Shown: positions 29,662 to 59,835 of the stretch, in pieces | Position numbering within the stretch: position 1 is the first letter of the stretch | How the letters are laid out: every line of letters starts with the position of its first letter | Assembly (NCBI GenBank): GCA_025999335.1 | Contig: AP024681.1 | Span: 523,547-587,546 of the forward strand | Reading direction: 5' to 3' | DNA: 64,000 nt | DNA from: Candidatus Parcubacteria bacterium | Lineage (GTDB): Bacteria > Patescibacteriota > Minisyncoccia > UBA6257 > HR35 | Notes under the pieces: generated by a model | The model's database searches: none | Seen by the model: the letters and a program-made list of their open reading frames with translations, nothing else | Told to the model about the DNA's origin: nothing | Made by a program: the position numbers and the translations under genes

Positions 29662-30993
29662 TTATCGGATTTTTTCAAATAAAAAAATTAAAGGATCAAT
29701 GTAACCATAATTTTGAGGACTATGAGGAGCATAGCCATAGCATTTAACTTTTTGACCTTTGATATTGCATTTAGCCGGCACTGGCGTTTCTAGTACAGGT
29801 TTAGTTTTAATTTCTAAATGTAAATGAGTATCCAAAGGGGTTTCTTTGTCGCATCCATCTTCTCCAATTCGCCAATAATTACAGCCAAAACCTGTTGCTC
29901 CAACCTTACCTAAAATTTGTCCAGCTTTTATAAAATCTTCTTCTTTAATTTTTGGATTAATTTCAGCCATATGACCATAAAGAGCATATAATTTTTCAGA
30001 TGTGAACTCTTGCGAACCTTCACGCGAACTTTTGCGAAAATCATTTTCAAACGCAAACTCCTGATATCTAGTTCGCACAGGTTCGCGATTATTATAGTTG
30101 TTTGCATCAGTTCGCGTCGCATTATTCTCTGTTTGCATTAGTTCGCGTTCGTTATAATTGTTCGCATTAGTTCGCGTTATTTCCACAATCACCGTATTTC
30201 CTAAGCCATGATCTTTTTCACCGTTTTTTATAATTTTTACAACTTTTCCGTCAGCTATTGAATAAACATTTAAATCTTTAGCTGACGGTAAAGGAGCAAT
30301 GTCAATGCCAGCATGTTGAATATAATCATTTTCTCTATCTTTTGAGTAAGTATAAGTTGTTCTTAAAGGATTGTTAAATTTTTGACGAATGAAGAATTCT
30401 TTAATATTTACTGGCTGATGAAATCCTTCTTTAATTTTAAAATTTTTGAAAGTTAAATAACTAATTACCAAATCTCCTGCTTTAGCAAGCTTGAAAAACT
30501 CTTGAGCATATTTATCTTCTAAACGGATACAACCACCTGTAAAATTTGAATTTACTCGTCTTCCATCGAGGTAATAAGGAATTTCATGGATGAAGAAATC
30601 TTCATACATTTGGACAGCATAATTCATATAAACAGGAAATAATGATGAAAAAAGCTTTTCTTTTTTGACGCCGATTCGAAAATAACCTGCTGGTGTTTGA
30701 TACCATTTTCCATAAGGAGCTTGATAAGCGATAGGAATTGTTTTTTTAAGTTCTCCGTTTTCAAAAAAATAAATTTTATTGTCAGTTAAATCGACTTCAA
30801 AAACCCTGTTTTCATTAATTTTTGGTTGTAAAACTTTATTTGTTTCTGTTAGGATGCTATTTTGGGGATCTCTATTATTAAAATTCAAAATAATTATTTT
30901 TGGTGTTAAGAATGAATCTAAATTATTAGTCGTTATTGCCGTTATATTGAAAATTGCTCCTAGTAATATAAAACTAAAAAATATATTTTGCAT
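29662..30993 (-). CDS. L,D-transpeptidase (YkuD) fused to an M23 peptidase
   Basis: FFIHE..TGGCIRL; HAGID, YGHM and HLHLE motifs. Confidence 0.88.
   Translation of the reverse strand: MQNIFFSFILLGAIFNITAITTNNLDSFLTPKIIILNFNNRDPQNSILTETNKVLQPKINENRVFEVDLTDNKIYFFENGELKKTIPIAYQAPYGKWYQTPAGYFRIGVKKEKLFSSLFPVYMNYAVQMYEDFFIHEIPYYLDGRRVNSNFTGGCIRLEDKYAQEFFKLAKAGDLVISYLTFKNFKIKEGFHQPVNIKEFFIRQKFNNPLRTTYTYSKDRENDYIQHAGIDIAPLPSAKDLNVYSIADGKVVKIIKNGEKDHGLGNTVIVEITRTNANNYNERELMQTENNATRTDANNYNNREPVRTRYQEFAFENDFRKSSREGSQEFTSEKLYALYGHMAEINPKIKEEDFIKAGQILGKVGATGFGCNYWRIGEDGCDKETPLDTHLHLEIKTKPVLETPVPAKCNIKGQKVKCYGYAPHSPQNYGYIDPLIFLFEKIR
30000..30177. repeat. In-frame inverted array of GCGAAC / GTTCGC units in the M23 domain
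   Basis: About five GCGAAC-like units followed by eight GTTCGC-like units, mostly in pairs 10 bp apart; ~58-aa insert. Confidence 0.9.
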
Positions 30994-31179: not shown

Positions 31180-31710
31180 ATGCAAAAAATTGCTTTTATT
31201 ATAGCTAAAAGATATTTTCGAGATGAAGAATTTTTTGTGCCAGCTAGGATGTTAGAAAATGCTGGTTATGAAGTAGTTGTTGTGAGTAATGCTAAGAAAG
31301 GAGAAAGTGCTGTTGGTGCAAATGGCGGTGAGGTTGTTGTTGATTTAGAATTAGAAAATTTAAATCCTGAAAATTTTGATATGGTAGTTTTTGTTGGTGG
31401 TCCAGGAGCTTTGGAAAATTTGGATAATGAAATTAGTTATAAAATTGCCCAAAAAACTGTTGAGTTGAAGAAAAAATTAGCAGCGATTTGCATTGCGCCA
31501 ACGATTTTAGCTAAAGCTGGAGTTTTGAAAGGCAAGAAAGCAACCTGTTGGTCAAGTGAAGAAAACAAAAAACCAATTAAAGTTTTAGAAGAAAATGGCG
31601 CAGAATATACTGGTGAAGATGTTGTTCGCGATGGGGATTTAGTTACTGCCAATGGTCCAGCAGCTGCTGAAAAATTTGGTAAAATATTATTAGAAATATT
31701 GAAAGAATAA
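31180..31710 (+). CDS. DJ-1/PfpI family protein
   Basis: F.DEE, VGGPGA, AICIAP and TANGP motifs. Confidence 0.93.
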   Translation: MQKIAFIIAKRYFRDEEFFVPARMLENAGYEVVVVSNAKKGESAVGANGGEVVVDLELENLNPENFDMVVFVGGPGALENLDNEISYKIAQKTVELKKKLAAICIAPTILAKAGVLKGKKATCWSSEENKKPIKVLEENGAEYTGEDVVRDGDLVTANGPAAAEKFGKILLEILKE

Positions 31711-31752
31711 AGAAAAGAAAGTTCTCTACAAAATAAAAACAACAATCATTAT

Positions 31753-31805
31753 TCCGGGGTAGTTCAGTGGTACCTGCCTACCGGCAGGCAGGGAACGCGC
31801 GGCTG
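31753..31805 (+). pseudogene. tRNA-Asn 5' half, interrupted in the D-loop and truncated in the anticodon
   Basis: TCCGGGGTAGTTCAGTGGTA-[20 bp]-GAACGCGCGGCTG is otherwise identical to 32052-32084. Confidence 0.9.
31773..31792. repeat. 20-bp palindromic element CCTGCCTACCGGCAGGCAGG
   Basis: Precise insertion relative to the intact tRNA copies; 7-bp arms. Confidence 0.92.
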
Positions 31806-31821
31806 CATAATATAAAATAAA

Positions 31822-32061
31822 ATGAATTATTACGTGTATGTTTTGAGAAGTTTGAAAACAGGAAAACATTATATAGGTATAAGCAAAAATCCAGAGAAGA
31901 GACTAAAAGAGCACAACAAAGGGGATAGTAAATTTACGAAAGGTCATAGACCATGGGTTTTGGTTTATAAAGAGTTTGTTGGTAATAGATTAAAAGCTAG
32001 AGTAAAAGAAAAAGAATTGAAAAGATCATACACAAAACGAAAAAATTTTATTCCGGGGTAG
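31822..32061 (+). CDS. Small GIY-YIG nuclease (UPF0213/SLX1-like)
   Basis: YVYVL..HYIG.S.N..RL.EHN.G..T..RPW.LVY.E..A..E..LK; stop codon lies inside the tRNA. Confidence 0.93.
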   Translation: MNYYVYVLRSLKTGKHYIGISKNPEKRLKEHNKGDSKFTKGHRPWVLVYKEFVGNRLKARVKEKELKRSYTKRKNFIPG

Positions 32062-32123
32062 TTCAGTGGTAGAACGCGCGGCTGTTAACCGCGATGTCGT
32101 AGGTTCGAATCCTACCCCCGGAG
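32052..32123 (+). tRNA. tRNA-Asn(GTT), intronless
   Basis: TCCGGGG/CCCCGGA acceptor, CGCGG-CTGTTAA-CCGCG anticodon arm, GTAGG-TTCGAAT-CCTAC T arm. Confidence 0.96.
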
Positions 32124-33710
32124 CAAAGAGGACTGATTTTCGCTTAAATTCTCAAAATCCCTATTAAAATCTTGCTTTTCTTGATTTTTAGCTGGTTCGA
32201 ATACACCCTCTTTCTCTAACTCACCAGGAAGATCCATTATTCGAACCGTAAATATAGGCTCAATCTTTACATTCAGCTTTTTATCCTTTACTATAAATTC
32301 AGAACCTATACACTTTAAAATAGTCCTTTTAGTGGCAATATCTCCGTTAAGATAAGCTTCTTTTATCTTTCCCACGATATTTACATAGTCAATAGCATAA
32401 TCAATCCATCTATCATCTTCATATTCTTGTTCTCTTAACATAGTTTCAATAGCTTGCTTTCTTTTTCTTAGCGGTTCAATATTCCTTTGAAATTCCTCCT
32501 CAGTAATCTCTCCGCTTGATTTCATATTTATTAAGTTATCAATCTGATTAGTTATAGCAGAATACATTCTTTTATAATGACCTAAATTCTTTTCTCTTTC
32601 TTCTTTTCTTTTTCTTTGTTCTTCTTTCAAAGTACTAATAGCCCAGTTATGAATAGCTTCAGGAATGCTAATATTTGATAAAACTTCTAAAATTTCATTT
32701 TCTAACTCCTCCTCTCTTATTGGTTTTTGATGGCAAATTCCAGGATAATTTTTCTTTTTAGCACATTCATAATAAACATATCTCAGAACCCTACCATTTT
32801 TGTTTCTTTTCAATTTTTCATAGCTAGTTAAAACACCACCGCATTCACCACATCTTAATAAGCCTCTAAACATATGAACGATTTTCCTCTTTTTAGGACT
32901 TCCTTTTCTATTTAAAATTTCTTGAACCAATAACCAAGTTTCTTTATCAATAACAGGCTCATAATTTCCTTTATACCAATTACCAGAACCTTTAGGATAT
33001 TCAAACTCACCATAATAATCAGGACATCTTAACATTGCATAAAATTTACTCGGAGATAATCTTTTGCCATATCTATTTGTTAATCCCCACTCATCAACAG
33101 CTATTCTATAAACTTCTTTAGGAGTGTATTGACCACTTGCTAATGTTTCAAATACTTTTCTTATAATATGAAATCTTTCTGGATCAGGAAAATAGTTATG
33201 TTCGCCTTTAGGAGAATATTTGTTATTGAGATAACCCAAAGGAGCTAATCCTGGTTTAAATCCTTTTTCAGCTTTCTTTCTCAGCCCTCTTTTAGTATTA
33301 GTAGCGAGATCTCTAATATACTGGTTAGCCATTCCAGTTTCTACAGCCCATAATAAAGCGTTATCTTCTGGCTTATAAACTCTTTCTGGTGTTCTAATTT
33401 CTTTAATTATTTCTTTTTGTAAAAGCCATTGAATTGTTCCTGAATCAATAGGGTTCCTGCTAAGTCTATCAACTTTCCAACATAAAATAGCATTAGCCTC
33501 TCCTTTTTTAATTTTTTCAATCATTAAGTTAAAAATCTCCCTTCCCGGCTCTTTAGCACTTTTAGCTTCTGTTAAAATATCAACAACTTCTAAACCCTCT
33601 TTTTCTGCTAATTTTTGTAATTCTTCAACCTGAGATTCTAAAGATAAGACCTGTCTATCTTCTGACTCTGAACTTTTTCTAGCATATATAATGTATCTAA
33701 GTTTTCCCAT
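32112..33710 (-). CDS. Large serine recombinase (resolvase, recombinase and Zn-ribbon domains)
   Basis: YARKS catalytic Ser, DRLSRN, PLGY, C..C..Y.C; the last codons are the antisense of the tRNA 3' end. Confidence 0.95.
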   Translation of the reverse strand: MGKLRYIIYARKSSESEDRQVLSLESQVEELQKLAEKEGLEVVDILTEAKSAKEPGREIFNLMIEKIKKGEANAILCWKVDRLSRNPIDSGTIQWLLQKEIIKEIRTPERVYKPEDNALLWAVETGMANQYIRDLATNTKRGLRKKAEKGFKPGLAPLGYLNNKYSPKGEHNYFPDPERFHIIRKVFETLASGQYTPKEVYRIAVDEWGLTNRYGKRLSPSKFYAMLRCPDYYGEFEYPKGSGNWYKGNYEPVIDKETWLLVQEILNRKGSPKKRKIVHMFRGLLRCGECGGVLTSYEKLKRNKNGRVLRYVYYECAKKKNYPGICHQKPIREEELENEILEVLSNISIPEAIHNWAISTLKEEQRKRKEEREKNLGHYKRMYSAITNQIDNLINMKSSGEITEEEFQRNIEPLRKRKQAIETMLREQEYEDDRWIDYAIDYVNIVGKIKEAYLNGDIATKRTILKCIGSEFIVKDKKLNVKIEPIFTVRIMDLPGELEKEGVFEPAKNQEKQDFNRDFENLSENQSSLLRG

Positions 33711-45572: not shown

Positions 45573-46844
45573 TTATAATTTTAAAATAGTTTTTTTGAAA
45601 TTTGAAAACCTGTTTTCTTTAATTGACTTTCTAATTTCTTTAAATAAATTCAAAATCCAGAACACATTATGTTCAGTTAAAAGTATAATGCCGTAAATTT
45701 CTTTTTCGCGAAGCAGATGACAAATATATGCTCGTGAATATTTTCTACAAATATTACATTTGCATTTGGGATCAATAGGTTTTTTATCTGTTAAATATTT
45801 ACTTGCTTTTAAATTAATTCTTCCATTAAAACTAAATCCTGTTCCATGCCTTGCCCATCTGGTTGGAATTACACAATCAAATAAATCAATTCCTTGTTCA
45901 ATTGAATTCAAAATATCATCAATTTCTCCAATTCCCAAAAGATGTCGTGGTTTTTTATAATCAAGATAAGGCAAAGCCCAACTTAAAACTTTAATAATAT
46001 CTTTTTTACTTTTACCCAAACTTCCACCGATACCAAAACCAAAAAAGGGAAGTGAATTAATAAATTGAGCCGATTCTTTTCTTAAATCTTCATATTCTCC
46101 TCCTTGAACAATTCCAAACAAAACTTGATTTTTGGTTTTACCAAATTCATCCAAGCATTTAATTGCCCATTTATGAGTTCTTTTTAATGCTTCTTTTGTG
46201 TATTTATAATCAGACAAAGGGGAAGTGCATTCATCAAAAGCAAAAATAATATCTGCGCCCAAAATTTTTTGAACTTTAATTGAAATTTTTGGAGATAAAA
46301 ATAATTTTTGTCCATTGTAAGGATCAATAAATTCAACACCATCATCATAAATTCTAACCAGATTCTTTTTTAATGCAGATAAACGCGGATTTTTATCACG
46401 CGGATTTACGCCGATATTATTTTCTGTGTATATCCCGTTTTTTTTATTTTCCGCGTAGTTCCGCGTTAGTTCTGCAGAGTTTTTCATTTCCTCAGGAAAA
46501 ATATCTGCCACTTTTCCAACCCCATGTTCCATTCCGAAACCCAAACTAAAAACCTGAAATCCTCCACTATCAGTCATTAAAGGATAATTAATATTTAAAA
46601 ATTTATGCAAACTACCAAATTTTTTAATAATTTTATATTTTTCCTGACGAAAAAAATGAAAAGTATTAATCATAAAAATTTCAGCACCAAATTTTTTAGC
46701 TTGTTCAAAACTTAAACCTCGAATACCACCTTTTGTTGCAACAATTGCTAAATTAGGAGTTTTAATTAAACCATGAGGTGTTTTAAAAATTCCTAATCTT
46801 GCTTTTGTTGTTTTGTCTTTCTTTAATATTTTAAATTTAAACAT
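45573..46844 (-). CDS. tgt: tRNA-guanine transglycosylase
   Basis: TDSGGFQVFSL, FDECT, GIVQGG, PRHLLG, DCVIPTR and C.C..C motifs. Confidence 0.97.
   Translation of the reverse strand: MFKFKILKKDKTTKARLGIFKTPHGLIKTPNLAIVATKGGIRGLSFEQAKKFGAEIFMINTFHFFRQEKYKIIKKFGSLHKFLNINYPLMTDSGGFQVFSLGFGMEHGVGKVADIFPEEMKNSAELTRNYAENKKNGIYTENNIGVNPRDKNPRLSALKKNLVRIYDDGVEFIDPYNGQKLFLSPKISIKVQKILGADIIFAFDECTSPLSDYKYTKEALKRTHKWAIKCLDEFGKTKNQVLFGIVQGGEYEDLRKESAQFINSLPFFGFGIGGSLGKSKKDIIKVLSWALPYLDYKKPRHLLGIGEIDDILNSIEQGIDLFDCVIPTRWARHGTGFSFNGRINLKASKYLTDKKPIDPKCKCNICRKYSRAYICHLLREKEIYGIILLTEHNVFWILNLFKEIRKSIKENRFSNFKKTILKL
46373..46477. repeat. In-frame inverted array of ACGCGGA / TCCGCGT units in tgt
   Basis: GCAGAT-AA-ACGCGGAT..ACGCGGAT-TT-ACGCCGAT versus TTCCGCGT-AG-TTCCGCGT-TAG-TTCTGC. 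Confidence 0.88.
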
Positions 46845-46845
46845 T

Positions 46846-47724
46846 TTAGTAAAATATTGTTTTAATTTTTGGATAAGGAATCTTAAATTTAATTTTATGA
46901 GCCAAATTCCAAATTAAATTATCAACTAAATAAGACGGCAAAGCTAATTTTTTTGATAAATTTTCTCCTAAAATAATACTTGCCCACCTTAATTCATTTT
47001 CCAAGATTGAATGTGTTTTGATATTTTTTTTATTTTTTATTTTATTTAAAATGTTTTTTGGCAAAGAAATTAGGTTAAAGTTTATAAACAATTGTGGTAA
47101 TTTATAATCAACAAAAACAGTTAATTCTTCTAACTCAGTTTTGAATTTTTTATCTAGTTTATTACCAATAATAAATTCAAAATATAAAAGTTGGTTTGGT
47201 TTTAAAAAATAAAAATTTCGATAATAATCTTTAAATTTTTTCAAATAAAAAAGATTTAAACAAAATTTTAATGGATTTTTGTTTTCTTCAAAGTAATTTA
47301 AAAAATCACCATCATAATTTTTATTGAGCCAAGCTAAAGCTTGTTTGAAAATTTTATATCTTAAATTAGCTAAATTATAATTTTCTTTTGGTGAAATTAA
47401 TTTTCTAAAAATATCAAAATCTATTTTATTAAAATTAATATTGAATAAATTTTTTGTTTTTAACAAAAGTCCATAGAATCCTTTTTCGTTTTTAAATTGC
47501 CAATTTTTAGGAAATTCCCATAATCTAAAATCTAAAACTCTAAGAAAAAATAAGAAATTACTTAATTTTTTAAGCTCAATATTTTTTAAATATTTTTTAA
47601 ATTTATCAAAATCTTGTTTTTCTTTTTTTATTAACTTAAAAAAGTCTGTATTAATTTCATTTGTTTCTATAATCCTAAATTGATAATTTTTATTTTTGTC
47701 TAATATAAAATTTTTCAAACTCAT
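46846..47724 (-). CDS. Queuosine salvage glycosylase (DUF2419/QNG1-like)
   Basis: VDYKLPQ, E.ELR.ASI, VDNLIW and C-terminal TIFY; directly upstream of tgt. Confidence 0.8.
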   Translation of the reverse strand: MSLKNFILDKNKNYQFRIIETNEINTDFFKLIKKEKQDFDKFKKYLKNIELKKLSNFLFFLRVLDFRLWEFPKNWQFKNEKGFYGLLLKTKNLFNINFNKIDFDIFRKLISPKENYNLANLRYKIFKQALAWLNKNYDGDFLNYFEENKNPLKFCLNLFYLKKFKDYYRNFYFLKPNQLLYFEFIIGNKLDKKFKTELEELTVFVDYKLPQLFINFNLISLPKNILNKIKNKKNIKTHSILENELRWASIILGENLSKKLALPSYLVDNLIWNLAHKIKFKIPYPKIKTIFY

Positions 47725-47744
47725 TTATAATAATTATAAATATA

Positions 47745-49079
47745 ATGAAAAACTATTTAACTATTTTGGAAAAATTAATATCTTTTAAAACAGTTTCAGC
47801 TGATAGTTGCAAGATTAATGAATTTAAAAGAATTATTAATTTTATCAAAAGTATTTTAATAAAAGAAGGTTTTAAAATTGACATAATTGGCAAGCAACAT
47901 CCTCTTTTTATAGCTTCGAAATTTATTTCTACTTCTTCAAAAACTATTGGTGTTTATTGTCATTATGATGTTCAACCTGTTGAACCATTAGACCAATGGA
48001 ATTGCGATCCTTTTAAGATGGTAATTAAAAATAATAAAATTTATGGTCGTGGTGTTGCTGATGACAAAGGACATTTATCTCAAAATATTTCTGCTGTATT
48101 AGATTTATTAAAAGAAAAAAAATTAAAAAATAATATTATTTTTATATTTGAAGGGGAAGAGGAACTTGGCTCACTAAATTTTGAAAAATATGTTAATGAA
48201 GTTAAGAATCATTTAAATAAAGTTGATTTATTTTTATTAAATGATGTAGGTATGATAAAAAATAATGTACCAACAATTTATTATGCTTTAAGAGGAATTA
48301 TTTATTTTGAACTTGAAATTTGGACAGGTAGTAGGGATTTACATTCAGGAGTTTATGGTAATTTAGTTTATAATCCTATTCAAATATTAATTGAACTTTT
48401 TTATAGAATCAGAAATCTAAAAGGTAATTTGAAAATACCGAAATTTTATAATCAATGTAGAAAAATTTCTATAAAAGAAAAAAAAATGTTGATAACAGAA
48501 GAAAAGGATTTAAATACTATTAAAAAAGCAAGTGGAGTATTTGCCTTAAATCCTTTAGATAAAAATTTTCCTTTAATATCTTCCAAAATTCATCCATCTT
48601 TGGAGGTAAATGGTTTTATTTCTGGTTATACAGCAGAAGGACCAAAAACAATTATTCCAAATTATGCCAAAATTAAATTTTCCATAAGATTAATTGAATA
48701 TCAAGATCCAAAAAATATTATCAGTTTAGTGAAGGATTTTATTCATAACAATTTGCCATCACAAATTAAGTATTCCTTAAAAGTTTTATCAGCATCTAAA
48801 CCTTTTTATTGTGATTATAAAAATTATTATTTTAAAAAAGTTTCAAAAATTTTGGAAGAAGAATTTGGCAATAAATGTGTTTTTACTCGAGAAGGTGGTA
48901 GTATTCCTGCTGCTGAAATTTTGTTGACAAAATTTAACAAACCAATAATTTTAACAGGTTTTATTTTGCCTGGTTCAAACATTCATGCTCCTAACGAAAA
49001 TTTTGATTTAAAAAATTTCTTAAAAGGTATAAATGTATTAAAAAAAATTTATAGTTTTTATTTTTCAGAAAATGATTAA
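47745..49079 (+). CDS. M20 family dipeptidase
   Basis: HYDVQP, GRGVADDKG, EGEEE.GS, DLHSG and HAPNE motifs. Confidence 0.93.
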   Translation: MKNYLTILEKLISFKTVSADSCKINEFKRIINFIKSILIKEGFKIDIIGKQHPLFIASKFISTSSKTIGVYCHYDVQPVEPLDQWNCDPFKMVIKNNKIYGRGVADDKGHLSQNISAVLDLLKEKKLKNNIIFIFEGEEELGSLNFEKYVNEVKNHLNKVDLFLLNDVGMIKNNVPTIYYALRGIIYFELEIWTGSRDLHSGVYGNLVYNPIQILIELFYRIRNLKGNLKIPKFYNQCRKISIKEKKMLITEEKDLNTIKKASGVFALNPLDKNFPLISSKIHPSLEVNGFISGYTAEGPKTIIPNYAKIKFSIRLIEYQDPKNIISLVKDFIHNNLPSQIKYSLKVLSASKPFYCDYKNYYFKKVSKILEEEFGNKCVFTREGGSIPAAEILLTKFNKPIILTGFILPGSNIHAPNENFDLKNFLKGINVLKKIYSFYFSEND

Positions 49080-49986
49080 TAAAAGATTAAAAATTATTGC
49101 CGGACCTTGTTCTGTAAATAAAAACAATATTAAAGATATTTATGAAATTGCTGATTTGAAAATAAATAATCAAAAAGTTATTTGGGGATTAAGGGTTGTT
49201 GGTTTGAAATCAAGAACTAATTTTGTTAAAGATGGCAAAGGGATGGGCATTGATTTTAAAGATTATATTAATAACTTGCGACAAATAATTAAAAGTAAAA
49301 ATTTTAAAAATTTAAAGATTTTCAAAAGTATTAAGTTAGCCCAAAAAATTTATCAAGAGACAAAAATGTTGGTTGCCACAGAGGTAATGGATCCTTTAAT
49401 TCAGCCTTATTTATATGAAAAAATAATACCTGCTTATAAATTATTACTTTGGAATCCTGCTGTTAATCAACTTGGCTGGCCTATTTTTCTGATGAGTCAA
49501 TATATTAAAAAGAATAAATGGTATTTAGGCCTGAAAAATCCAAAATGGGTTGGTGATTATTTGAAAAATGTTGATAATCTAAACTATTCAGAACGAACAA
49601 CGATGGAAAGAACTTGGGAGGGTTTGGTAAGTTATGCTAATTTAGCAAAAGAAAGAATTATTTTAATTCATCGTGGTGTTGATGTGCCTGAAAAGAAAAA
49701 TTATCGTAATGCTCCTGTTCATTATTTAGCCTGGAGAGTAAAAAAACATACGGGATGTTTATTATTTTTTGACCCATCACATTCTCATGGGCCTCGAATG
49801 AGAGAAAAAATATTGCCAGCAACAATTAAGGCAATGAAAATTATGATTGATAATCAATATCTTTATGATGGCATTTTAATTGAAGTAGGTCATTCAGAAA
49901 CTGATACCGAACAACATATAAGTTTAGAAGAATTTAAAAATTTATGTCAAGAATTATCAAAATTTAGGGAGCTTGAATCACAATGA
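49072..49986 (+). CDS. Divergent DAHP/KDO8P synthase class I family protein
   Basis: IIAGPCSV, KSRT, TEVMD, HRG, DPSHSHG, DGILIEV and D..Q motifs. Confidence 0.75.
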   Translation: MINKRLKIIAGPCSVNKNNIKDIYEIADLKINNQKVIWGLRVVGLKSRTNFVKDGKGMGIDFKDYINNLRQIIKSKNFKNLKIFKSIKLAQKIYQETKMLVATEVMDPLIQPYLYEKIIPAYKLLLWNPAVNQLGWPIFLMSQYIKKNKWYLGLKNPKWVGDYLKNVDNLNYSERTTMERTWEGLVSYANLAKERIILIHRGVDVPEKKNYRNAPVHYLAWRVKKHTGCLLFFDPSHSHGPRMREKILPATIKAMKIMIDNQYLYDGILIEVGHSETDTEQHISLEEFKNLCQELSKFRELESQ

Positions 49987-50738
49987 TTTATGTTATTTCT
50001 TTAGGAGGTAGTATTTTAGTTCCTGAAGAAATAAATATTGGTTTTTTAAGAAAATTTAAAAATTTAATTTTAAAAGAAATTAATAAAAACAAAAAATTTA
50101 TTATTATTGTTGGTGGAGGTAAAACAGCAAGAAAATATCAAGAAGTAGCCAAAAAACTAACCAAAATTTCAAATGAACATTTTTATGATCCTTTCAAAAA
50201 TGCTATGGTATGTTATACAGGATTATTGAAAAAAGAATCAGTTAAAATTTTTAATGAAGATCTTGATTGGTTGGGAATTCATGCAACAAGAATCAATGCT
50301 CATCTTCTTTTGACTATTTTTAGAAAATATGCTTATTACAGAATTATCAAAAACCCAAAAGAAAAAGTTAACTTCAAAGAAAAAATTTTAATTGCTGCTG
50401 GTTGGAAACCTGGTTTTTCAACTGATTATGATGCTGTTTTATTAGCCAAAACTTATAAATCAGATACTGTAATAAACCTAACTAATGTTGACTATGTCTA
50501 TGATAAAGATCCAAACAAATTTAAGAATGCCCAACCTTTAAAAGAAATAAACTGGAAAGATTACTTAAAATTAATTGAAAATAAATGGATTCCTGGTATG
50601 TCAGCGCCTTTTGACCCAATCGCTTCAAAAATCGCTCAAAAATTTGGAATAAAATGTATCATTATTAATGGTAATAAATTAAATGAATTTCAAAGATTTT
50701 TAGAAGGCAGAAAATTTAGAGGAACAGTAATTAAGTAG
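49983..50738 (+). CDS. pyrH: UMP kinase (archaeal type) with a 27-aa insertion
   Basis: SLGGS, VGGGKTARKYQ, D.LGI.ATR.NA, PG.STD, TNVD.VY.KDP and PFDP motifs. Confidence 0.93.
   Translation: MIYVISLGGSILVPEEINIGFLRKFKNLILKEINKNKKFIIIVGGGKTARKYQEVAKKLTKISNEHFYDPFKNAMVCYTGLLKKESVKIFNEDLDWLGIHATRINAHLLLTIFRKYAYYRIIKNPKEKVNFKEKILIAAGWKPGFSTDYDAVLLAKTYKSDTVINLTNVDYVYDKDPNKFKNAQPLKEINWKDYLKLIENKWIPGMSAPFDPIASKIAQKFGIKCIIINGNKLNEFQRFLEGRKFRGTVIK
50163..50258 (+). repeat. 81-bp in-frame insertion bounded by a 15-bp imperfect direct repeat
   Basis: AAAATTTCAAATGAA ... AAAATTTTTAATGAA (KISNE...KIFNE). Confidence 0.75.
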
Positions 50739-52521: not shown

Positions 52522-52818
52522 TCCGGGGTAGTTCAGTGGTAGAACGCGCGGCTGTACTTAGTGCAGCTTCCATCCGTAAGGATGGATGAAAAACAGGGTG
52601 AAAACGGTGAAGCCCTCTAAAGGGTAATACCGTGCCAGCCTAAGCTGAAAAGCTTTGGAAGGTGTAGAGACTATTCCTTAATGGAAGTAGGCTTAGTAAT
52701 TTTACTAAGTCGAAGCACCCCGCCCCAGTAAAACTGGGTGAAGATATAGTCCACTCCTTAAGGAAACTTAAGGGAAAGTGTAACCGCGATGTCGCAGGTT
52801 CGAATCCTGCCCCCGGAG
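52522..52818 (+). tRNA. tRNA-Asn(GTT) with a group I intron (exons 52522-52555 and 52781-52818)
   Basis: Joining the exons gives a full cloverleaf with loop CTGT|TAA; differs from the 32052 copy by one compensatory T-stem pair. Confidence 0.93.
52556..52780 (+). ncRNA. Group I intron, 225 nt, no ORF
   Basis: P1 GCTGT/GCAGC with U-G at the 5' splice site; P3 GGGTG/CACCC; R GTAGAGACTA and S AAGATATAGTCC (P7); P9 GAAA loop; terminal G. Confidence 0.93.
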
Positions 52819-52859
52819 CACAGAAGAATAATTTTCATCCTCTTTTTCAAAAATTTTAA

Positions 52860-57836: not shown

Positions 57837-58190
57837 TTAATCTTCCTCATCCAGCACAATCAAAGGCTTTCTTTCTATCTCTACCTCTTGCTTTTCAGTA
57901 TACCCTTGCTTAGACGAAAGAAGTTTAGCTATAGCAATGTTTACCTTATTCAATAACCCAGCATTGATTAATAACTTAGTTTGTTTAAGGTTCAAAATCT
58001 CAAGCGTGTCGGAAAATTCTTTATATTGTCTTTTCCATTCATAAATCGTATCTCTGTTAACGCCTAATACCAAAGCCAATCCCTCAATTGAGGGAATAAC
58101 ATCGCCGTATTTTTGATGATTCTCAACATAATCTTTTGCTATTTTTACTACATCCTGACTATATTTTGTTGGTCTTCCTCTTTTAGCCAT
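57837..58190 (-). CDS. Phage terminase small subunit / DNA-packaging protein (gp3-like)
   Basis: GRPTKY, PSIEGLA..LGV.RDTIYEW, IAKLL..GY.EK motifs. Confidence 0.85.
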   Translation of the reverse strand: MAKRGRPTKYSQDVVKIAKDYVENHQKYGDVIPSIEGLALVLGVNRDTIYEWKRQYKEFSDTLEILNLKQTKLLINAGLLNKVNIAIAKLLSSKQGYTEKQEVEIERKPLIVLDEED

Positions 58191-59554: not shown

Positions 59555-59835
59555 ATTTTCGAAAAATACTTTTTATTGAATTAAATTTCAAAAAGTGAGT
59601 CCGCCGAATAGTAGGCGAGTGAAAATTACAGTTGTTTTAAATTTCTCTTTTTTGATTTGCAAATTAAATTAGGTAAAATTACAGTAAAAGTTTGAAACAA
59701 GCTTGATTGCAAAGCACAGAGACTAATTTTCGCTTTTTTCAAAATCACTATTAATTTCTTCGTTTTTCTTTAGTTTTTGCTGGTTTGATAAATTTTTGAG
59801 ATATTTTTAGATTTATCATTTTGTTTAAATAATTT

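Follow-up and report, generated by a model that had tools for sequence, protein, structure and literature searches.

A nuclease gene between two copies of tRNA-Asn

In the genome of a Candidatus Parcubacteria bacterium, the gene for a 79-residue protein lies between a partial and a complete copy of tRNA-Asn and ends inside the complete one, which raises the question of whether this arrangement is a mobile unit and, if so, how such a unit enters a tRNA gene and leaves it intact. The window analysed here (64,000 nucleotides) is part of a single 680,436-bp contig with 28.5% GC. The homologues and loci that bear names belong to Parcubacteria/Patescibacteria, in keeping with this lineage. Its source genome is designated G000, G023 is a genome of another genus, and L followed by a number denotes a locus sampled elsewhere. 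A PfpI gene is followed by a tRNA-Asn fragment, the GIY-YIG gene, an intact tRNA-Asn and a serine-recombinase island containing primase, restriction-modification and queuine genes:

31180..31710, + strand: PfpI/DJ-1 family gene (PF01965, E 5e-40), the upstream host neighbour, also 5' of the unit in G023 and 85% identical in L008
31753..31772, + strand: block 1 of the left tRNA-Asn fragment (nt 1-20), with the same sequence as in the intact tRNA, the putative crossover or homology segment
31773..31792, + strand: near-perfect palindrome of 20 nt that interrupts the D arm with no duplication of the target and belongs to a family of dispersed micro-repeats
31793..31805, + strand: block 2 of the left fragment (D stem to G34), common to the G023 unit though the stem of G023's own tRNA differs
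31806..31821, + strand: AT-rich spacer of 16 nt up to the start codon, near-identical in G023
31822..32061, + strand: gene for the 79-residue single-domain GIY-YIG nuclease (PF01541), with its stop codon within the tRNA
32052..32124, + strand: complete intronless tRNA-Asn(GUU) (ARAGORN; Rfam RF00005, 73.7 bits)
32112..33710, - strand: gene of a large serine recombinase, part of a separate island located at the 3' end of the tRNA
52522..52819, + strand: second copy of tRNA-Asn, interrupted after U35 by a group I intron of 225 nt (52556-52780) that has no ORF (ARAGORN; Rfam Intron_gpI)

The first-pass annotation read this locus as a selfish element of about 280 bp consisting of a tRNA-Asn 5' half that ends at G34, a GIY-YIG gene and a complete tRNA-Asn. 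The gene is as described, and its terminal FIPG and stop codon are indeed encoded by the ten bases with which the complete tRNA begins. The last matching base of the fragment, which starts at 31753, is G34 at 31805, but the fragment is no clean half: the palindrome interrupts its D arm and splits it into 20 + 13 matching bases. The repeat period of the unit is 299 bp, the smaller figure being obtained only when the palindrome is omitted. The first 18 nt of the tRNA occur three times in the window, versus none in 100 shuffles. Folded as DNA, the left fragment is no better than its shuffles (z -0.46), and the whole unit folded as RNA gives z -2.07. A promoter scan (7 sites versus 4.9 expected) found nothing informative. 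A single nuclease gene of this kind is present in the G000 genome, and the palindrome occurs there twice, the other time in degenerate form at a distant site.

The same large serine recombinase is found at tRNA-Asn without the nuclease in genomes G010 and G018 (97% identical in G010, pS 0.22). In the window its gene ends within the 3' end of the tRNA, and att-like copies of that end occur twice downstream (52791-52836 and 59713-59760), which suggests stacked islands. A block of TGT, queuosine-salvage and pyrH genes (45573-50738), in an island-like stretch of the window, precedes tRNA-Asn in G010 (C1:621202-626271) and was possibly captured through imprecise excision. An isolated terminase small-subunit-like gene (PF16677) lies at 57837-58190 in the segment after the intron-bearing tRNA. 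Degenerate repeats of about 60 bp within a YkuD/M23 gene (30010-30177) have short matches at several sites of G001 and G023. Two more long-intron tRNAs called by ARAGORN elsewhere in G000 (C1:63673-64563 and 135529-136156) may be false calls.

The nuclease is a lone GIY-YIG domain

The 79-residue protein matches PF01541 with 55.9 bits (cut-off 22.6, E 5e-15), and its predicted structure is a single domain (pLDDT 88). All 27 homologues compared have Y6, Y17, G19, H31 and E63, and 90% or more of these rows have R27, so that the superfamily core (Tyr, Tyr, Gly, Arg, His, Glu) is found together with the superfamily fold. The nearest solved sequences are those of UPF0213 and Slx1/HIGLE proteins (PDB 6SEH, 7WME, 1ZG2 and 1YWL, E 4e-15 to 7e-7), the nearest folds are likewise theirs, and I-TevI ranks far below UPF0213 and Slx1 in the structure comparison. 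The match to TIGR01453 covers residues 5-35 only (23.9 bits, cut-off 56). With a single domain of 79 residues the protein fits the size range of Ssn nucleases (single domain, about 80-100 residues), but membership of the Ssn (cd10448) clade was rejected: the protein stands on a separate branch from four Ssn proxies and scores 35.5 bits against their profile, versus 177-183 for the proxies themselves. These proxies are four NTS-flanked GIY-YIG proteins from 134 viral loci, stand-ins chosen by their NTS flank rather than assigned by CDD; all four share a C-terminal W-x-R-x-W-K motif that occurs in none of 88 proteins of the present family. On its sequence the protein thus consists of one GIY-YIG domain of the Slx1/UPF0213 kind and falls outside the Ssn clade.

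By analogy, it may work like Ssn or Slx1. It has no separate DNA-binding region next to the catalytic domain, such as Seg-type homing nucleases possess, to which a specificity for tRNA-Asn might be traced, and this speaks against the account favoured below. Presence or absence at homologous sites and lateral spread, which are further marks of Seg-type genes, are both observed here (nine of 104 tRNA-Asn loci filled, with low synonymous divergence between genera). Cleavage of the tRNA itself is judged unlikely because the analogous SsnA is inactive on RNA, according to the available text of its description (PMC11893778). A phage origin was considered and rejected, the viral collection yielding one distant match, away from any tRNA.

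Distribution and exchange between genera

The unit is common to G000, G023 and two metagenome assemblies (L036 and L037), in each case with its own substitutions and different hairpins, and the same layout occupies nine of 104 sampled tRNA-Asn loci; an assembly artefact generated by the tRNA repeat is therefore barely credible. The nucleases of G000 and G023 are identical at 77 of 79 residues and 231 of 240 nucleotides (9 differences). Their synonymous divergence is pS 0.153 (7/46) and their non-synonymous divergence pN 0.010 (2/191), versus pS 0.45-0.61 in seven other, neighbouring genes (Fisher p 4e-4 versus PfpI and 9e-6 versus HIT), the contrast being that of one genome pair and 46 synonymous sites. 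As far as sequence comparison goes, this low divergence indicates a recent exchange between genera under purifying selection. Divergence of the neighbouring PfpI gene is also somewhat lower toward the unit (pS 0.64, 0.38 and 0.33 by thirds).

Distribution in the family is patchy, with any member of the nuclease family present in 8 of 25 genomes; at the level of the class, 248 of 301 genomes have the nuclease family, a single genome having as many as 18 matches. When copies were sampled irrespective of tRNA, about 40-50% adjoined a tRNA (11 of 28 and 16 of 30 in two samples), and 12/28 and 5/30 lay between short inverted repeats. Inverted repeats of about 13 bp bound the relatives L061, L064-L068, L072, L073, L075, L076, L081 and L082, which form clades of their own; in these the stop codon overlaps an ATG and the left end often has an ATGA as well, a pattern that resembles insertion at gene starts.

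The closest relatives of the G000 nuclease are all at tRNA-Asn and form an eight-member clade (SH-aLRT 97 in a quick tree of 41 rows), to which a ninth locus, L042-L044, adds a tandem array with a period of 296. In a tree of 88 proteins (ten duplicate or self loci left out, 86 columns), in which many forks are unresolved and the bootstrap had not settled, the Asn label requires 7 changes versus 15.8 when shuffled, none of 500 shuffles being as low; at least two origins of Asn units are needed, and a Lys clade is supported at 100/94. A different GIY-YIG gene of the same genus (L185, G001 C32:190-426) lies about 90 nt downstream of an intron-bearing tRNA-Asn, after two hairpins.

The suggestion of a small selfish GIY-YIG unit associated with tRNA genes is supported by the patchy spread, the recent exchange between genera, the purifying selection, the tRNA-Asn location of all nearest relatives and the tandem array. 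The survey of homologues that the first-pass annotation had called for turned up the tRNA-fragment flanks and the tandem array that it anticipated, but no enrichment of introns, and the association with tRNA genes is not exclusive, 12 of 28 copies being those between inverted repeats.

Fragment ends, flanks and the half that travels

A breakpoint in the anticodon, at G34, had been proposed, together with a duplicated TTAT flank and a replacement 5' half brought by the element. Eighteen tRNA-Asn units were compared, nine of the present clade and nine from a sample across the order (105 of 151 genomes matched the pattern; 107 loci outside G000 were read and three with short flanks dropped, leaving 104). 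In the present clade the fragment ends in the anticodon loop in eight of nine units (U33 in four, G34 in two, U35 in one and 35-38 in one), whereas only two of the nine order-wide units end in the loop and the rest end near 24-29, the ends in both sets being read partly by eye. The breakpoint is accordingly not fixed but ranges from about 24 to 38, and the anticodon-loop end is a trait of the present clade, not of the whole nuclease family. TTAT does precede both tRNA copies in G000, but it is not conserved: the sister unit in G023 has AT alone in common, and AT precedes 86 of 98 unit-free tRNA-Asn genes (TTAT 10 of 98), so that a 4-bp flank duplication was rejected.

Which half travels with the gene is best seen in G023 and L038, where the left fragment has the G000-type anticodon stem and the intact tRNA has a different, self-pairing stem that is common to unit-free relatives; the left stem is unable to pair with the 3' half of the tRNA in its own genome. 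A foreign left stem beside a host-type intact tRNA implies that the dead fragment moves with the gene. A cut at the anticodon repaired with a new 5' half predicts a left piece of host type and a right half that tracks the nuclease, and the closest pair shows the opposite; the model of a replacement 5' half is thus not supported. L118, L177 and L040 (the last by a single base) likewise have a left fragment unlike their resident tRNA, which brings such units to 5 of 18. In 12 of the 18 the fragment and the resident allele agree, as a fresh target duplication at each insertion would also lead one to expect, and one more is degenerate.

Eight further loci (L026, L094, L095, L101, L102, L116, L142 and L168) have hairpin-bearing tRNA-Asn 5' fragments without the nuclease, some of them in tandem, consistent with loss of the element. 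At L160 the fragment continues for three bases that match the start of the neighbour's intron, and at L041 it runs on as an intronless anticodon loop though the neighbouring tRNA has an intron; either may be chance.

Palindromes and hairpins

A hairpin insertion is present in the fragments of all 18 tRNA-Asn units, and the hairpin type tends to track the nuclease clade; G023, L038 and L039 have nested or extra hairpins. Like the hairpin repeats that flank Ssn genes these hairpins lie next to the gene, but on a single side, upstream, and they are not NTS-like; the palindrome itself occurs mostly at a distance from nuclease genes. The 20-nt palindrome is found in 69 of 151 genomes of the order, at up to 45 copies per genome, with no control matches. 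Among 29 palindrome sites outside G000, one has a nuclease gene within 1.5 kb and 12 have a tRNA nearby, and no flank consensus is visible around them; in four nuclease-rich genomes, 2 of 35 sites by hand count lie within 1 kb of a nuclease gene, a fifth such genome having none. Because so few sites adjoin nuclease genes, the palindrome is not supported as a dedicated element end; it is an independent micro-repeat that accumulates in tRNA fragments. One copy (L232, G436 C9) lies within an apparent group I intron of a tRNA.

The group I intron in the other tRNA-Asn

The second tRNA-Asn of the window does contain a group I intron, as had been stated (Rfam RF00028, 54.3 bits versus a gathering score of 50; the 5' exon ends in U and the intron in G). 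It lies 20.4 kb from the unit, on the far side of the serine-recombinase island; in both G000 and G023 the tRNA next to the nuclease has no intron. The 3' flank of the intron-bearing tRNA matches the flank in G023, and its leader and upstream pyrH/TGT block match the arrangement in G010; both a host copy split by the island and a copy captured with the island fit. Group I introns have reportedly been found at 35/36 in tRNAs of Patescibacteria.

The intron had been proposed to protect its gene from the nuclease or to be mobilised by it. Introns were called at 4 of the 9 tRNA-Asn loci with a unit and at 35 of the 95 without one (odds ratio 1.37, p=0.73), a comparison in which related loci are not independent and only nine units enter, so that a weak link is compatible with it; introns in the sample were called from three bases after U35, the Rfam check being confined to the window's intron. 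In the present clade, four of nine adjoining tRNAs have an intron. Ten of 39 extracted introns contain an ORF of 89-118 residues with weak HNH matches, two of them above the Pfam cut-off (one 63-residue ORF was left out of the scan). This conserved HNH-like protein is encoded near the 5' end of introns of about 520-570 nt (L087, L091, L096, L117, L130, L142, L150, L165, L167 and L182; also L024). The window's intron is closest (82%) to that of L130, which has the HNH-like ORF and sits beside another unit; this similarity suggests that the window's intron lost its ORF. The group I intron appears to be an independent occupant of the same gene, travelling with an HNH-like gene of its own.

How the unit may move

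The account that we favour, with moderate confidence, is that the 299-bp unit is a likely selfish element that would nick empty tRNA-Asn genes and be copied in by recombination. The 79-residue protein would be an active DNase that acts on single-stranded or branched DNA, as its Slx1 and Ssn relatives do, and would drive its own spread by nicking an unoccupied tRNA-Asn gene. Recombination within some 20-26 bases at the 5' end of the tRNA would then copy the unit in, its left arm being the fragment that bears the hairpin. The anticodon-loop end of the fragment would be a scar handed down from the first insertion in the clade, and not the mark of a cut made at every move. The flanking direct repeat would permit tandem gain and loss, and the hairpins might persist either as marks recognised by the nuclease or because a broken repeat is deleted more slowly. 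Such a unit likely moves between ultra-small bacteria without destroying the tRNA.

A rather less probable explanation is that each unit results from a fresh insertion at or near the anticodon, the host's 5' part being left as the fragment and the tRNA being restored by a long target duplication or by a 5' half or whole tRNA borne by the element; this is in essence the first-pass model with the intron taken out. It accounts for the loop ends in eight of nine clade members, for the 12 units in which the left fragment equals the resident allele, for the sister proteins L112 and L158, each of which matches its own resident tRNA after the hairpin, and for the native-looking leader above the fragment in G023, L038 and L039. 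It does not account for left stems in G023 and L038 that cannot pair with their own 3' halves, for the 96%-identical gene and common left stem of G000 and G023 beside different intact tRNA alleles, or for the range of ends from about 24 to 38. Co-mobilisation with the intron, in which the nuclease would cut the 35/36 junction of intronless tRNA-Asn and the ORF-less intron would be both protected and carried along, is very unlikely. The ends at U35 in G023 and G34 in G000, the four introns among nine adjoining tRNAs of the clade and the resemblance of the window's intron to that of L130 speak for it, but there is no excess of introns at unit-bearing loci, the adjoining tRNAs of G000 and G023 have no intron, the L130 nuclease is distant from that of G000, and ten introns, that of L130 included, have their own HNH-like ORF.

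It is also unlikely, though less so, that the nuclease is a passive passenger or is useful to the host, in repair or in the control of incoming single-stranded DNA as with SsnA, and is found at tRNAs as hot spots of recombination to which transformation or islands carry it. Purifying selection, the lower divergence of PfpI toward the unit and the recombinase island next door would all be expected, and SsnA modulates transformation in Neisseria, as described in the available text of PMC11893778. Against such a role are the patchy presence in the family, the presence of as many as 18 divergent copies in a genome elsewhere in the class, and the target-coherent clades, stop codons fused into tRNAs, tandem arrays and relatives bounded by inverted repeats.

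If the favoured account of a self-spreading unit is right, such units are a major unrecognised force on the tRNA loci of ultra-small bacteria, and an essential gene is invaded yet kept intact. The absence of a link with the intron matters as well, the intron at the same tRNA apparently travelling independently with its own HNH-like gene. A broader reading, possible though doubtful, is that these units represent an undescribed class of autonomous mobile elements of roughly 300 bp without transposase or recombinase. In such elements a lone Slx1-like GIY-YIG domain would recognise single-stranded DNA in folded form, either the cloverleaf of a tRNA or a hairpin; each clade would have specialised in a particular tRNA or, where short inverted repeats bound the unit, in the starts of genes. 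These enzymes might also mobilise the 20-bp palindromes in trans, which would then be the smallest elements of a non-autonomous kind.

Comparison with known systems

No description of the layout of tRNA fragment and GIY-YIG gene was found in a literature search that covered main texts, with most subscription papers outside it. In their short, dispersed palindromes, at up to 45 per genome, and in the plausibility of spread in trans, the present genomes resemble those with REP/RAYT and Rickettsia palindromic elements. The RAYT enzyme is a tyrosine transposase, whereas the candidate enzyme here is a GIY-YIG nuclease, with a gene near only 1 of 29 palindrome sites and no flank consensus. Both kinds of element are named in the discussion of the Ssn paper (PMC11893778), as far as its available text goes.

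Collaborative homing, as set out in the available texts of PMC3984707 and PMC10448857, needs a shared target and co-inheritance of nuclease and intron. The likeness consists in an ORF-less intron and a free-standing nuclease at the same gene, with a fragment that ends, in two genomes, at the intron site or 1 nt from it; the differences are that nuclease and intron are not adjacent in G000, show no signal of co-occurrence or co-inheritance, and that related introns encode the HNH-like protein. The Slx1/HIGLE and UPF0213 proteins, in turn, are the nearest relatives by solved sequence and by fold. Slx1 is a larger repair enzyme partnered with Slx4, and the UPF0213 proteins are uncharacterised; to our knowledge neither occurs in a mobile unit bracketed by tRNA sequence.

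SegB of phage T4 is, like the present gene, a free-standing GIY-YIG gene at tRNA genes with a tRNA-Asn target, and it spreads with flanking DNA; its site of 27 bp is double-stranded, lies on the T-loop motif, is cut near the 3' end and is preferred in tRNA-Asn (available text of PMC2330249). Unlike the present gene it is a phage gene, and that text describes for it neither a tRNA-fragment duplication nor a hairpin. The 79-residue protein has no room for a DNA-binding domain and is far below the cut-off of TIGR01453.

Together with SegB, the closest known system is Ssn, lone GIY-YIG nucleases of similar size (94 residues versus 79) that cut single-stranded DNA site-specifically and have NTS/SRM hairpins (Chenal et al. 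2025, PMC11893778), whose catalytic residues Y6, Y17 and E64 in SsnA have equivalents in Y6, Y17 and E63 of the present protein. In both systems hairpins are found next to the gene and also dispersed. For Ssn, the authors of the paper note a layout like that of insertion sequences; the word tRNA does not occur in its main text. The present gene is distinguished by the direct repeat of tRNA sequence that brackets it and by its position on a branch apart from the NTS-flanked proxies, which have the W-x-R-x-W-K motif that the present family lacks. The element is real and probably selfish, a relative of the known small GIY-YIG systems, and a set of nucleases of some 80 residues that differed in the tRNA or hairpin they prefer would carry the Ssn idea over to a further clade.
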